From IMG/VR virus record IMGVR_UViG_3300032286_000510, positions 1 to 64,000 of that record: 64,000 nucleotides of DNA. One strand, given 5' to 3'. The notes beneath the pieces are model-generated. The model did not search any database, had not been told where the DNA came from, and worked only from the letters and a program-made list of their open reading frames with translations. Shown piece by piece: positions 6,203 through 30,781 of the stretch (the stretch's first letter is position 1; the number at the start of each line of letters is the position of its first letter). This stretch comes from a virus. Made by a program: the position numbers and the translations under genes.

Positions 6203-6253
6203 TAGATGATTCAGCAAAAAAACTTTTTTTTGGTAAAAAAACAACATCATCTA
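6203..6253 (+). ncRNA. CAGCAA hairpin RNA (Thr-GGT-like loop)
   Basis: TAGATGAT/ATCATCTA stem, TCAGCAA, TTTTT-TTGGTAA-AAAAA. Confidence 0.6.
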
Positions 6254-6258
6254 GTCTT

Positions 6259-6349
6259 GGGAGAGTGCCTACTGTCGGCAATATGTGTAGGAGCAGTCTG
6301 TAAAACTGTCACTTAGGAACCATCGGGGGTTCGATTCCCTTCTCTCCCA
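6259..6349 (+). tRNA. tRNA-Tyr(GTA), enlarged D loop
   Basis: GGGAGAG/CTCTCCC, gcagt-CTGTAAA-actgt. Confidence 0.85.
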
Positions 6350-8893: not shown

Positions 8894-8975
8894 GGAAGAG
8901 ATCCGAATGGTGAGGGCGCTGATTTGAAATCAGTTGGGTGTAAAAGCTTTGCAGGTTCGACCCCTGTCTCTTCCG
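8894..8975 (+). tRNA. tRNA-Ser(TGA)
   Basis: gctga-TTTGAAA-tcagt; own TTGACT-17-TATACT promoter. Confidence 0.85.
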
Positions 8976-10177: not shown

Positions 10178-10251
10178 CGCAGACGAGTGTAAAGGTTGCA
10201 CGATAGGTTCATACCCTATAGGACGGAGTTCAATTCTTCGGTCTGCCACCA
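10178..10251 (+). tRNA. initiator-like tRNA-Met(CAT)
   Basis: C1:C72 mismatch, atagg-TTCATAC-cctat, CCA. Confidence 0.85.
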
Positions 10252-10256
10252 AATAA

Positions 10257-10327
10257 GGGGGATTAGTTAAACGGTATAACGGGTGCTTTGCAAGCACTTA
10301 TTAACAGTTCGATTCTGTTATTCTCCA
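10257..10327 (+). tRNA. tRNA-Ala(TGC)
   Basis: G3:U70; ggtgc-TTTGCAA-gcact. Confidence 0.92.
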
Positions 10328-17120: not shown

Positions 17121-17136
17121 AACTGGCACAAGGCAC

Positions 17137-17165
17137 TTGACATCCCACCAAAACTCTGGTATGAT
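17137..17165 (+). promoter_or_regulatory. sigma70-type promoter
   Basis: TTGACA-17-TATGAT with extended -10 TG. Confidence 0.75.
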
Positions 17166-17182
17166 ACATAGGTAATCAACAA

Positions 17183-17301
17183 AAGATCAGTCAGCAACAC
17201 AAGACACTTTTCATGTAAGAAAACTCGTAAAAACTGATCTTGTAATAAAGTTAATTCAGCAACACAACTTGAACTTCTAAACTCAAACAAAACATTAACT
17301 T
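17183..17301 (+). ncRNA. two CAGCAA hairpins in the 5' leader of the TROVE-like gene
   Basis: AAGATCAGT/ACTGATCTT and AAGTTAAT/ATTAACTT stems, each followed by TCAGCAACACAA. Confidence 0.6.
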
Positions 17302-17311
17302 GGAGAAAATT

Positions 17312-18781
17312 ATGACTTTCCTGACCGCACTTGAAACTGAACTGAACACCACTGAAACTCTCAATGGTGCCAAAGCATACAAATCCACTCTCAACAAATG
17401 TGTAGATCTTTTTGGTAAAATTGGTGCTTGCCGTAATGACATTCCACAAGCAAAAAAACTATTTGCTTACGCATTCAAAGAAGATCCAGAGACTGCTACT
17501 CGTATCCTATTTTGGGTAAGAGACATTAGGGGTGGTGGACAAGGAGAACGTGAAATCTTCCGTAATCTCTTCAAAGACCTTGTGAATGGAAATAGTGAAA
17601 TTGCCACTAAACTTGTGGAACTCATTCCTGTTTATGGTCGTTGGGATGACCTTCTGATTCTTGAAGGCACTTCCGTCTGGGATAATGTCGTGAATGTTAT
17701 CGTCAATCAACTTCGCAAAGATGATGTTGCTCTGACCGCAGGGGAGAATGTTTCTCTGCTTGGTAAGTGGATGCCTTCTATCAATGCTTCTAGTGCTGAT
17801 AGCAAACGTCTTGGTCGTGTGTTCGCAAAACGTCTTGAACTGAACGAACGTCAGTATCGTAAGTTCCTGACTGCTCTTCGTTCTCAAATTAAAATTGTGG
17901 AACAGAAGATGTGTTCCAAAGAATGGTCTGAGATTGACTACGAACATCTTCCTTCTCGTGCTGGATTTATGTATCGTAAGGCATTCGCAAAGCAGGATGC
18001 TACTCGTTACGCAGAATATCTGAGTGCCGTGGAGAAAGGTGATAAGAAAATCAATGCCGGAACCATCTATCCTTATGAGATTGTAGAAAAATATCTCTAT
18101 AAAGGTGGCAGTCAAGATAAGACTATTGACCTGATGTGGGAGGCACTGCCTAACTATATGGAAGGTCAAGAACTCAATGGTCTTGTGGTTGCCGATGTTT
18201 CTGGTAGTATGATGGGAACTCCAATGGCAGTTTCTATCTCTCTTGCGATGTATATTGCCGAACGCAATACTGGTATTTGGAAAAATAAGTTCATCACTTT
18301 CACCGAATGTCCTGAACTTCAATCCATCGTCGGTAATACTATCGGTGATCGTATTCGCAATCTTGCCAATTCTTCTTGGGGATACAATACTGACCTCAAA
18401 GCAGTATTTGAAAGTGTTCTGAATGCCGGAATCAAGAATAATGTTCCTGACGCAGAAATGCCTAAGAAACTTATCATTGTTTCTGATATGCAGTTTGACC
18501 AAGCATGTGCTTCTAACAAACGCACCAACTTTGAGCAAATTCAGAAGATGTATCGTAAAGCAGGATATGAGATGCCTGAACTGGTTTTCTGGAATGTGAA
18601 TGCGATTGGGGGCAATGTTCCTATGACCATTCACGATACTGGTACTTGTCTGGTGTCTGGTTGTTCTCCTTCCATCCTGAAAAGTGTTCTGAGTGGTAAA
18701 ACTATCACTCCTGTGGATGTAATGAAGGATGCGGTGTATGCCGAACGTTATGATAAAATTGGGGAAGTGTTCGGTTCCTAA
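17312..18781 (+). CDS. Ro60/TROVE-like protein with C-terminal vWA domain (DUF2828 family)
   Basis: TLNGAKAYKSTLNKCVDLF, RDIRGGGQGER, YGRWDDL, GKWMP, MIDAS DVSGSM, SDMQFD, VFWNV; GGAG SD favours ATG 17312. Confidence 0.88.
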   Translation: MTFLTALETELNTTETLNGAKAYKSTLNKCVDLFGKIGACRNDIPQAKKLFAYAFKEDPETATRILFWVRDIRGGGQGEREIFRNLFKDLVNGNSEIATKLVELIPVYGRWDDLLILEGTSVWDNVVNVIVNQLRKDDVALTAGENVSLLGKWMPSINASSADSKRLGRVFAKRLELNERQYRKFLTALRSQIKIVEQKMCSKEWSEIDYEHLPSRAGFMYRKAFAKQDATRYAEYLSAVEKGDKKINAGTIYPYEIVEKYLYKGGSQDKTIDLMWEALPNYMEGQELNGLVVADVSGSMMGTPMAVSISLAMYIAERNTGIWKNKFITFTECPELQSIVGNTIGDRIRNLANSSWGYNTDLKAVFESVLNAGIKNNVPDAEMPKKLIIVSDMQFDQACASNKRTNFEQIQKMYRKAGYEMPELVFWNVNAIGGNVPMTIHDTGTCLVSGCSPSILKSVLSGKTITPVDVMKDAVYAERYDKIGEVFGS

Positions 18782-18797
18782 ACTGGCACAAGGGGGG

Positions 18798-18827
18798 TTG
18801 ACAGAAACCCCCAACCTATGATATAAT
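18798..18827 (+). promoter_or_regulatory. sigma70-type promoter for ncRNA array
   Basis: TTGACA-18-TATAAT with extended -10 TG; second TTGAAA-17-TATAAT at 18956-18984. Confidence 0.7.
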
Positions 18828-18835
18828 ACATACAA

Positions 18836-19036
18836 TAGATGGTTCAGCAATTTACCCATTTTATAGGAAAAACAACCATCTAGCAAACAAAGGTCTCTCA
18901 GCATTTCAATTTTCTCCTAACTCAAATCTGGGATTTGAAAAACCTCAGTGAGACCTTGAAAAAACTTTCAATCCGTGATATAATTTTATAGATGATTCAG
19001 CAATTAACTGCTTGGTTATGCAAACAAAATCATCTA
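18836..19036 (+). ncRNA. array of three CAGCA(A) hairpin RNAs
   Basis: 18836-18882, 18890-18957 and 18989-19036: 8-9 bp stems each followed by TCAGCA. Confidence 0.65.
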
Positions 19037-19042
19037 GTTCAA

Positions 19043-19155
19043 AGGAAGGTAGCTCAGCTGGATAGAGCAACGTAAAATATATCTTGTCAAGATATTCACA
19101 GCAATTAAACCGCATTGTAAGCCGTTTGTCGCAGGTTCAAGTCCTGCCCTTCCTA
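19043..19155 (+). ncRNA. tRNA-like RNA with 39-nt CAGCAA insertion in the anticodon stem (loop ATTGTAA)
   Basis: AGGAAGG/CCTTCCT acceptor, canonical D and T arms, ACG-[insert]-GC-ATTGTAA-GCCGT. Confidence 0.75.
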
Positions 19156-19246
19156 TATCAAAACCAGTTCTCAAACTGGCACACTGAGACCCCCGCAAAG
19201 GGGTCTTTTGCTGTATAATACAAACACATTCAAGGAGGAACCTCAC

Positions 19247-19642
19247 ATTTCTACTCGTTCTCGCATTGGTCTTCAACTTTCTGATGGTTCTGTTCTATCA
19301 GTATATCACCATTGGAATGGATATCCTGAATGGTTGGGACGTATTTTGAATACTCACTACAACGCAAAATCTCTTGCCGAAGAACTGATTGATGGTGGTG
19401 ATATGAGCATCTGTTGGACTGATGAACGATGGGATGATAGTGGTGTGGAAGGTGTTTATGGTCCCAATTATTATGCCCTCCGTGGTGATGATTGTCCTCC
19501 TCGTCTTGATGCTAATTTGATTGAGTATCTCGGTGATAATGAGGAATATGCTTACCTCTTTACTAATGGTGAATGGGTATGCTATGAACTTGGTGAAACC
19601 CCTGAAATTGTTGAAATTCCAAATGGAGCATTGATGGTATGA
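19247..19642 (+). CDS. conserved phage protein (STRSRIG/YHHWxGYP family) with ATT at the expected start
   Basis: AGGAGG at 19233-38, then ATT TCT ACT CGT. Confidence 0.6.
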   Translation: MSTRSRIGLQLSDGSVLSVYHHWNGYPEWLGRILNTHYNAKSLAEELIDGGDMSICWTDERWDDSGVEGVYGPNYYALRGDDCPPRLDANLIEYLGDNEEYAYLFTNGEWVCYELGETPEIVEIPNGALMV

Positions 19643-30614: not shown

Positions 30615-30685
30615 GCCCTATAAGCATTGTGGTGATGCAGCAGTTTTGTAAACTGCAGAGAACAGTTCAATTCTGTTATGGGGCT
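30615..30685 (+). tRNA. tRNA-Thr(TGT)
   Basis: GCCCTAT/ATGGGGC; gcagt-TTTGTAA-actgc; late promoter upstream. Confidence 0.85.
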
Positions 30686-30781
30686 CTTAATCTTATAGTG
30701 ATGTGCCAGTTGTAGGACTGGATGATAACACCCTGAATAGCACCTAAAACGTGCTATAATAACTTTGTAATGATTCAACCT

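Follow-up and report, generated by a model that had tools for sequence, protein, structure and literature searches.

A tRNA-like RNA with a conserved hairpin-and-ACAGCAA insert in its anticodon stem accompanies a predicted Ro60-like protein gene in cyanophages

The stretch analysed here (the window) comprises 64,000 nucleotides (nt) of viral DNA, positions 1 to 64,000 of IMG/VR record IMGVR_UViG_3300032286_000510. It is part of a 78.9-kilobase (kb) contig, about 40% complete, from a virus of the T4-like cyanophage type with about 24 transfer RNA (tRNA) genes and a cyanobacterial two-piece transfer-messenger RNA (tmRNA). At 19043-19155 on the plus strand, beside a gene for a protein of the DUF2828 family, the window encodes a tRNA-like RNA whose anticodon stem is split by an insert of 39 nt carrying a hairpin and the motif ACAGCAA, referred to below as the handle. 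Covariation among its relatives shows that this RNA is under selection for its fold. By analogy with known ribonucleoprotein systems, it is probably a non-coding, Y-RNA-like mimic of tRNA that is bound by the DUF2828 protein, a predicted phage counterpart of Ro60.

Apart from the insert, the RNA is a non-permuted cloverleaf. The acceptor stem AGGAAGG/CCTTCCT pairs 19043-19049 with 19148-19154 and is followed by a discriminator A at 19155. The D arm (19052-19068) reads GCTC-AGCTGGATA-GAGC, the T arm (19131-19147) reads GCAGG-TTCAAGT-CCTGC, and U8, A9 and the G15-C48 Levitt pair are all present. The outer anticodon stem pairs ACG (19070-19072) with CGT (19123-19125). The inner stem pairs GC (19112-19113) with GC (19121-19122) and closes the loop ATTGTAA (19114-19120), forming an anticodon-like stem-loop at 19112-19122 with the triplet TGT. 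The handle (19073-19111) splits the 5' strand of this stem between positions 29 and 30, so that the uninterrupted stem of 5 base pairs (bp) expected of a decoding tRNA is not found. It begins with the A-rich tract TAAAAT (19073-19078) and the hairpin ATATCTT-GTC-AAGATAT (19079-19085 paired with 19089-19095), and continues with ACAGCAA (19098-19104, within TCA-CAGCAA) and the linker TTAAACC (19105-19111). The first-pass annotation, made from the letters, had described a tRNA-like RNA with intact arms and a 39-nt CAGCAA module inside the anticodon stem, and its coordinates and anatomy are correct in every detail.

The Rfam tRNA model (RF00005) matches 19043-19155 with 46.5 bits against a gathering score of 29, taking 50 nt of the anticodon arm as an insertion, and ARAGORN at default settings does not call the gene. 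In an Rfam search of 18600-19400 the tRNA family alone matches, and no YrlA, group I intron, other intron or ribozyme family appears at E <= 10. This agrees with the early remark that the insert is far too short for a group I intron.

A search for homologs near TROVE genes had been suggested, and homologs of the RNA are found beside DUF2828 genes. A covariance model, R1, was built from six copies of the tRNA-like RNA and used on viral contigs; it gives the window copy 129 bits and finds about 35 distinct full-length relatives of 110-123 nt. They occur at one to four per locus, all on the strand of the gene, and adjoin DUF2828 homologs of 94% down to 38% identity. The insert stands at the same site in these roughly 35 copies across deep divergence, with a shift of about 1 bp between subfamilies. 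Two complete relatives, of 244.9 kb and 258.4 kb, have long tRNA-like RNAs with the handle nowhere but beside the DUF2828 gene. Orthologs in the Synechococcus phages B3 and B23, placed after a homologous gene (68% identical), are annotated as 'tRNA-Pseudo' and 'tRNA-Undet', respectively. The ortholog of these cultured phages is at MN695334 221705-221814, and the DUF2828 protein of B3 is gp345.

Among 22 distinct relatives, 97.8% of the cells are paired and 25 of the 28 pairs show changes on both sides. None of 500 shuffles reaches the observed value, and no slid register comes close to it. All six helices covary, including 6 of the 7 pairs of the insert hairpin and all three outer anticodon-stem pairs that span the insert; in paralogs, the acceptor and T stems have wholly different sequences and the pairing is always kept. 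An alternative AAAC/GTTT pairing, seen in the minimum-free-energy fold, was rejected because it is unconserved in relatives, whereas the tRNA-type outer stem covaries.

Covariation in every helix, the insert hairpin included, indicates that the RNA is not a decaying pseudogene. The GenBank labels of the B3 and B23 copies and the failure of ARAGORN to call the window copy would fit a tRNA gene that was inactivated when a small mobile hairpin element inserted into it. However, the compensatory changes extend across the insert, about 35 copies share one insert site, the handle is invariant, and there are no target-site duplications and no terminal inverted repeats except the insert's own hairpin, which makes such an origin scarcely credible. 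The pseudogene idea had been tied to an insert missing from related phages and to the lack of a conserved motif; instead, both the insert and the handle are conserved and the hairpin covaries.

The anticodon-like loop behaves differently from the handle. With orthologs added by a metagenome scan, eight distinct ones share the acceptor stem of the window copy and are 87-97% identical to it outside positions 34-38. Their loops read ATTGTAA, ATTGGAA, ATTGGGG or ATGGAAA, and a ninth, 3'-truncated ortholog has ATGGTAA, which places the triplets TGT, TGG, GGA and GGT on one body with one discriminator. No handle column varies among the eight (0 of 36, against 23 of 78 elsewhere; p = 5e-5), whereas in the loop 4 of the 5 positions 34-38 do, compared with 19 of 109 elsewhere (p = 0.006). 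The triplet is TCT, TCG, GTT, TTT or AGG in paralogs and in relatives further removed, and GCA, GTA or CCA in a sister type from near-identical phages. The body of the window RNA had been called Arg-like at first sight, which fits the relatives with TCG or TCT in the loop. These observations argue against a decoding tRNA, which could not switch amino-acid specificity so freely on a fixed body. Moreover, judging from tRNA-ribosome contacts, a bulky branch at pairs 29-41/30-40 should clash with the decoding sites of the ribosome. Since the triplet switches on a fixed body while the insert is invariant, the RNA is taken to be a tRNA mimic that retains its insert as a handle.

The same data bear on whether the gene is an intron-bearing tRNA gene, in which an endonuclease would cut out the module, with the handle and the Ro-like protein perhaps as its guides, and a host or phage ligase would join the halves into a working tRNA-Thr(UGU). 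Without the insert, the anticodon stem would be a perfect 5-bp helix (ACGGC/GCCGT) closing a loop of the canonical 7 nt that has U33 and A37. Furthermore, the 21 distinct copies whose loop has 7 nt all keep a purine at position 37, and 20 of them keep T33; in a Listeria phage an RtcB 'tRNA-splicing ligase' is encoded 1.3 kb from the DUF2828 gene. Known genes of this kind (with group I introns, as in cyanobacterial tRNA-Leu and tRNA-fMet, or with archaeal bulge-helix-bulge introns) resemble the window RNA in their full cloverleaf, their tertiary-pair nucleotides, a score above the Rfam tRNA threshold and an interrupted anticodon arm. The window insert differs from theirs in being 39 nt long, inside the stem (29/30) and devoid of a ribozyme core or a bulge-helix-bulge: by inspection of 19070-19114 (no dedicated tool was run), ACG/TAA and ACC/GCA do not lie in two 3-nt bulges with a 4-bp helix between them. 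An intron is normally not the most conserved part of its gene, yet this insert is more conserved than the flanking 'exons', which is unusual for an intron so small and without a catalytic core. Near-identical orthologs switch among Thr, Pro and Ser anticodons with body and discriminator unchanged, some family members have no anticodon stem-loop and retain the handle, and mini-hairpins, which have no exons, carry the same handle. Against splicing stand also the movement of the insert by about 1 bp between subfamilies, the absence of any Rfam group I intron or ribozyme match, and the normal tRNA-Thr(TGT) gene already in the window, which had been pointed out at 30615 and is called by ARAGORN at 30615-30686. 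RtcB was not found in the two complete relatives, in which other ligases and endonucleases were not searched for. Overall, an intron is quite unlikely.

A different kind of interrupted tRNA is present in the complete 258-kb relative. This 121-nt R1 match (L194, G001:C1:62104-62224, minus strand), 7 kb from the DUF2828 gene, was rejected as a family member: its loop starts CTTACGG (Val-TAC-like), and an insert of about 45 nt without ACAGCAA lies inside the anticodon loop.

The handle is shared with small hairpin RNAs encoded around the gene, in which its parts are arranged differently. The layout of these mini-hairpins is strand a, (N)CAGCAA, a variable interior, an A-rich tract and strand b, and that of the tRNA insert is A-rich tract, strand b, loop, strand a and (N)CAGCAA. 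In some relatives (L020, 5369-5488), strand a and the motif of the insert are identical to those of the mini-hairpins, AAGATGATTCAGCA. An A-rich tract precedes strand b in 57 of 97 hairpin candidates, compared with 12% of background 6-mers, and in 21 of 34 tRNA-type copies; in the other copies it lies a few bases further upstream. From these layouts, the insert can be described as a circular permutation of the mini-hairpin handle: it has a loop in the place of the hairpins' free ends and opens onto the 'cargo' tRNA. The first-pass annotation had alternatively proposed the tRNA-like RNA as an ancestor of the mini-hairpins; with the two layouts being permutations of one module, either might be the older. 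The class is marked by a short covarying helix between an A-rich tract and (N)C(N)GCA(A/T), encoded on the gene strand beside a DUF2828 gene, and the window RNA has all of these elements. Some cyanophage mini-hairpins enclose a lone T-arm (for example TTGGTTCGATTCCAA), as at L013 4996-5048, L016 4922-4975, L015 4598-4681, L011 4986-5064 and L025 2810-2902; these are intermediate in form between bare hairpins and full tRNA mimics.

The neighbouring gene (17312-18781, plus strand) encodes a protein of 489 amino acids with the Pfam families DUF2828 (PF11443, 3.9e-37) and DUF7788, a vWA domain (PF25043, 3.2e-50). An AlphaFold model built on 18 homologs has a predicted local distance difference test score (pLDDT) of 81. 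Its full-length Foldseek matches are the Ro60 of phage phiLo (9KOP/9L5Y, 2e-8), Xenopus Ro (1YVR, 4e-6), Deinococcus Rsr (2NVO) and human Ro60 complexes. The MIDAS residues (metal ion-dependent adhesion site), D295, S297, S299, T360 and D392, are invariant among the 18 homologs. Sequence searches of solved structures in the PDB found nothing, either with the single sequence or with the 18-member profile, and the link to Ro60 comes from the fold search alone. The first-pass annotation had named the neighbour a TROVE protein; the predicted fold is in keeping with this name, whereas by sequence the protein has no match to Pfam TROVE and belongs to a separate family. According to the model, it would be a Ro60-type protein, with a HEAT-repeat ring and a vWA domain with MIDAS. 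At least 705 cultured-phage records contain DUF2828 proteins, among them mycobacteriophage genes that bear the annotation 'Ro-like RNA binding protein' and genes of Felix-O1-like, Listeria, Staphylococcus, Campylobacter, Vibrio and Bacillus phages.

All the RNA elements around this gene lie on the plus strand. A sigma-70-type promoter-like site at 17137-17165 (TTGACA-17-TATGAT, 11 of 12 matches, with TG ahead of the -10 hexamer), recognised by consensus match alone, lies upstream of two mini-hairpins in the 5' untranslated region (UTR) and of the gene itself. The first hairpin (17183-17241) has the terminal stem AAGATCAGT/ACTGATCTT with CAGCAA immediately 3' of the 5' strand, and its position is kept at all cyanophage loci examined. 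The second (17248-17301; AAGTTAATT-CAGCAA...ATTAACTT) adjoins the ribosome-binding site, also in a position kept in relatives, an arrangement that would allow autoregulation of DUF2828 protein translation. Two such 5'-UTR hairpins were seen at every cyanophage locus and one upstream of more distant homologs (L025, L038). After the gene, a second promoter-like site by consensus (18798-18827; TTGACA-18-TATAAT, 12 of 12 matches, TG extended) precedes mini-hairpin A (18837-18881; AGATGGTT-CAGCAAT...AACCATCT) and hairpin B (18890-18957; AAGGTCTCT-CAGCAT...GAGACCTT). A third (18956-18984; TTGAAA-17-TATAAT, 11 of 12 matches, TG extended) precedes mini-hairpin C (18990-19035; AGATGATT-CAGCAAT...AATCATCT) and the tRNA-like RNA; the transcript start expected from it, at about 18991, would coincide with the 5' end of hairpin C. 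Each of these three strong sites (17137, 18798 and 18956) thus stands about 7-18 nt ahead of a hairpin of 45-70 nt with an 8-9-bp terminal stem and CAGCA(A/T) directly after it. A GC-rich hairpin followed by TTTTG (19186-19210; GAGACCCC...GGGGTCT), terminator-like by eye and without a call in the consensus scan, closes the RNA unit. A further mini-hairpin with the same handle lies inside the tRNA cluster of the window (6203-6253; TAGATGATT-CAGCAA...ATCATCTA), and hairpins of this type are also present in the tRNA clusters of the relatives L056 and L122.

Starting from the RNA side, 79 new loci from an exact 15-mer scan of viral contigs for AGATGRTTCAGCAAT were checked and sorted by a hairpin test. 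A true hairpin is present at 6 of the 79, the remainder being chance matches. The DUF2828 gene lies inside the locus at 4 of the 6 true-hairpin loci and elsewhere on the contig at a fifth, in comparison with 0 of 69 chance-match loci. This co-location bears on another explanation, in which the RNA would be a decoy acting on its own, without the Ro-like protein, against host enzymes directed at anticodons, such as defence nucleases, with the insert only protecting or marking it. Phages are known to have tRNAs that act against tRNA-cleaving defences, and the triplets of the present family vary among close relatives with the shape of the loop kept. Such a decoy leaves unexplained both the strict co-location with the DUF2828 gene and the presence of the handle on RNAs without an anticodon-like loop, and its probability is considered low.

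RNAs composed of a helix and an ACAGCAA-type motif flank DUF2828 genes in 8 of 10 sampled phages of other hosts. On the gene strand, they were found in Listeria phage LMTA-57 (3), Staphylococcus phage S-CoN_Ph13 (3), Campylobacter phage F207 (2), Sinorhizobium phage phiM19 (2), E. coli phage vB_EcoM_3HA14 (4, between real tRNAs), Mycobacterium phage LilDestine (3) and Bacillus phage FADO (4). Four of these phages each have one RNA built on the YrlA plan, enclosing a permuted tRNA domain made up of T arm, closed acceptor and D arm. Permuted RNAs with the same handle are at L040 3480-3599, L042 4416-4535, L043 1062-1178 and L164 35-145. The T4-like Citrobacter phage Ci1 (OR515478.1) has two non-permuted tRNA-like RNAs of 114-115 nt (L165 3346-3460 and 3467-3580), about 500 nt downstream of its DUF2828 gene, each with a hairpin and (A/T)CAGCA inserted in the anticodon arm. 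One of them is annotated 'tRNA-Pseudo', and the first has an encoded CCA end and a promoter-like site of its own. In Vibrio phage nt-1 the motif is found in the 5' UTR only, and nothing convincing was seen at the DUF2828 locus of Aeromonas phage phiAS5. The Rfam YrlA model reaches at best 35 bits on the distant phage loci (a phiM19 RNA), compared with its gathering score of 69. In Listeria phage LMTA-57, the gene annotated as RtcB (L160, 4293-4461) is downstream of the DUF2828 gene, a placement that echoes the bacterial rsr-yrlBA-rtcBA operon.

The order of the elements in these arrays could also mean that the tRNA body is a scaffold for processing or stability, a punctuation mark for RNase P and RNase Z that frees the mini-hairpins, which would be the real protein partners, and has no role of its own. 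In the arrays of cyanophages and of E. coli phage 3HA14, mini-hairpins alternate with tRNA-like RNAs or real tRNAs about 5-15 nt apart, and in the window hairpin C ends 7 nt before the 5' end of the tRNA-like RNA. However, punctuation needs no handle in the tRNA, yet the handle is invariant there and its hairpin covaries, and ordinary tRNAs serve as punctuation in other phages. This role is therefore regarded as unlikely.

For the Y-RNA-like mimic, the following course of events can be proposed. The RNA would be transcribed from its own promoter together with mini-hairpin C, and would adopt a full tRNA L-shape that RNase P, RNase Z and the CCA-adding enzyme of the host could trim and stabilise; this maturation is suggested by the intact acceptor, D and T arms and by the tertiary-pair nucleotides. 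An RNase P cut at 19042/19043 would release hairpin C as a 5' leader. The 39-nt insert would be kept in the mature RNA as a docking handle, with a short helix, the A-rich tract on one side and single-stranded ACAGCAA on the other. The ring formed by the DUF2828 and vWA domains would dock on it, as Ro60/Rsr docks on the motif and stem of Y RNAs and phiLo Ro60 on CGAA hairpins. The tRNA body and its anticodon-like loop would be the 'cargo', free to vary, and more speculatively may engage a tRNA-recognising host factor.

It is conceivable, as a tentative extension with a small chance of being right, that the handle-tagged mimics are exchangeable baits, each with its own fast-changing loop. The Ro60-like ring would then dock on the handle in order to capture, block or hand over anticodon-specific host factors, such as tRNA-cleaving anti-phage nucleases or tRNA-modifying enzymes. 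If true, the system would be an RNA-programmed counter-defence particle rather than a device of general RNA quality control.

Several points weigh against the interpretation of the RNA as a Ro60-bound mimic. The binding of the DUF2828 protein to the handle is proposed by analogy with Ro60/Rsr and phiLo Ro60. The RNA has no Rfam YrlA match, and its handle motif is unlike the GNCGAA and CGAA of proven Ro60 partners. The U33, the purine at 37 and the 7-nt loop kept in most relatives are also expected of a real tRNA, and the proximity of the gene to an RtcB ligase in some phages, as in the Listeria phage, keeps a cut-and-rejoin scenario alive. Finally, four metatranscriptome runs compared with 18300-19500 gave no contig over 19043-19155 and no joints. 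Their contigs from close relatives cover the end of the gene, hairpins A and B and the start of a relative's first tRNA-like RNA; one of them extends upstream through the promoter, and DNA carry-over or read-through is a possible source.

The closest known systems come from bacteria and their phages. YrlA RNAs are tRNA-like Y RNAs encoded beside Ro60, and 22 phages with a TROVE-annotated Ro60 have been described (PMC4201824). In Thermus phage phiLo, Ro60 binds two hairpin RNAs, Yrl1 and Yrl2, encoded beside its gene (Hu et al. 2025, PMC12135203). A one-line mention elsewhere notes that a ROT/TROVE protein is present in some jumbo phages and that its counterparts in cells act together with a tRNA-like partner (PMC7824862).

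Like YrlA (Rfam RF02553; Chen et al. 2014, PMC4201824), the window RNA is a small same-strand RNA within a few hundred bases of a gene for a Ro60-type ring (HEAT ring and vWA). It begins 262 nt past the DUF2828 stop codon, inside the span of about 4 kb on the same strand taken for a Y RNA. Both mimic the acceptor, D and T arms of tRNA, carry a short conserved single-stranded motif beside a stem, and occur as several paralogous RNAs per locus. Unlike the YrlA system, the window has a DUF2828 protein and not a Pfam TROVE protein, matched to Ro60 by predicted fold rather than by sequence profile. The motif GNCGAA(N0-1)G is absent from 19043-19155, where the conserved motif is ACAGCAA. In addition, the order of the tRNA parts is normal and the acceptor stem is open, in place of the permuted YrlA topology with its RNA ends in the protein-binding stem. 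Here the two chain ends lie in the acceptor stem and a loop closes the handle, which makes the RNA a circular permutation of the YrlA-like design, and an anticodon-like stem-loop is still present. The early proposal of a Y-RNA-like, YrlA-analogous partner of a TROVE-like protein has therefore gained comparative support in its broader sense, from the predicted Ro60 fold, the travel of the RNA with the gene down to about 38% identity in cyanophage-type contigs, the handle in the phages of other hosts and its standing as the most conserved part of the RNA. Membership of YrlA proper does not hold, as comparison with the Rfam model gives no match and both motif and topology differ.

With phiLo, the window shares a phage-encoded ring, the phiLo Ro60 being the best structural match to the protein model. 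Mini-hairpins A and C resemble the phiLo Yrl hairpins: they are encoded next to the gene, and their terminal stem is joined by a single strand that contains a short motif. The differences are the motif (CGAA, not ACAGCAA), an identity of 16-17% between the two proteins, and the tRNA-shaped partner, none being reported for phiLo. Moreover, binding is demonstrated for phiLo, whereas the window system is known from sequence and predicted fold.

The literature found on DUF2828 consists of unrelated plant and tardigrade papers only, and no paper was found combining ACAGCAA with 'phage' or 'tRNA-like', nor one that describes the DUF2828 branch, its ACAGCAA handle or non-permuted tRNAs that bear it. 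New here are the cyanophage family, the relation of the two handle layouts by permutation, and the contrast of an invariant handle with a drifting anticodon-like triplet.

Some other features of the window deserve mention. The 10-mer AACTGGCACA, allowing at most one mismatch, occurs at 40 sites against 3.6 expected (for instance at 17121, 18781, 19174, 26252/26266 and 28707/28721), often as inverted pairs and located immediately upstream of promoter-like sites or following a gene; it probably serves as a regulatory or terminator palindrome throughout the phage. An odd tRNA-like gene at 6259-6348 (plus strand), flanked by tRNA-Lys and tRNA-Asp, has a long acceptor, a 5-bp D stem, a 14-nt D loop, the anticodon loop CTGTAAA (GTA, Tyr) and a long variable region. 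It receives no tRNA call from ARAGORN or Rfam, and its score of 30.9 bits with the Rfam tRNA-Sec model is under the gathering score of 47. Two further plus-strand segments, 8894-8975 and 10178-10248, match the Rfam tRNA model with 35.2 and 44.5 bits and are not reported by ARAGORN. The ARAGORN tRNA-Ala at 10257-10327 overlaps the start of the tmRNA call of the same program and has no Rfam tRNA match.

Taken together, the tRNA-like RNA is real and conserved and represents a new architecture within the Ro60/Y-RNA theme, and its readings as an intron or a pseudogene are unlikely. The presence of the handle on small RNAs beside Ro60-like ring genes in many unrelated phages suggests a Y-RNA-type particle. 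Ro60 and its Y RNAs form a classic and poorly understood RNA-protein particle, which matters in autoimmunity and in bacterial stress responses. The locus and its relatives point to a second large phage branch of this system with an RNA handle of its own, a helix plus ACAGCAA, attached freely to bare hairpins, to permuted tRNA domains or, through the anticodon stem, to a whole tRNA. This would account for the tRNAs of 110-120 nt that recur in cyanophage and T4-like genomes under the label 'pseudo' or 'undetermined', and supplies a rule, at the level of sequence, by which partner RNAs can be found. Cultured systems in which a viral Ro particle with a tRNA look-alike may be studied are available in Synechococcus phages B3 and B23 and in Citrobacter phage Ci1, and the changing anticodon-like triplet on an otherwise frozen RNA provides a testable hint at its target.

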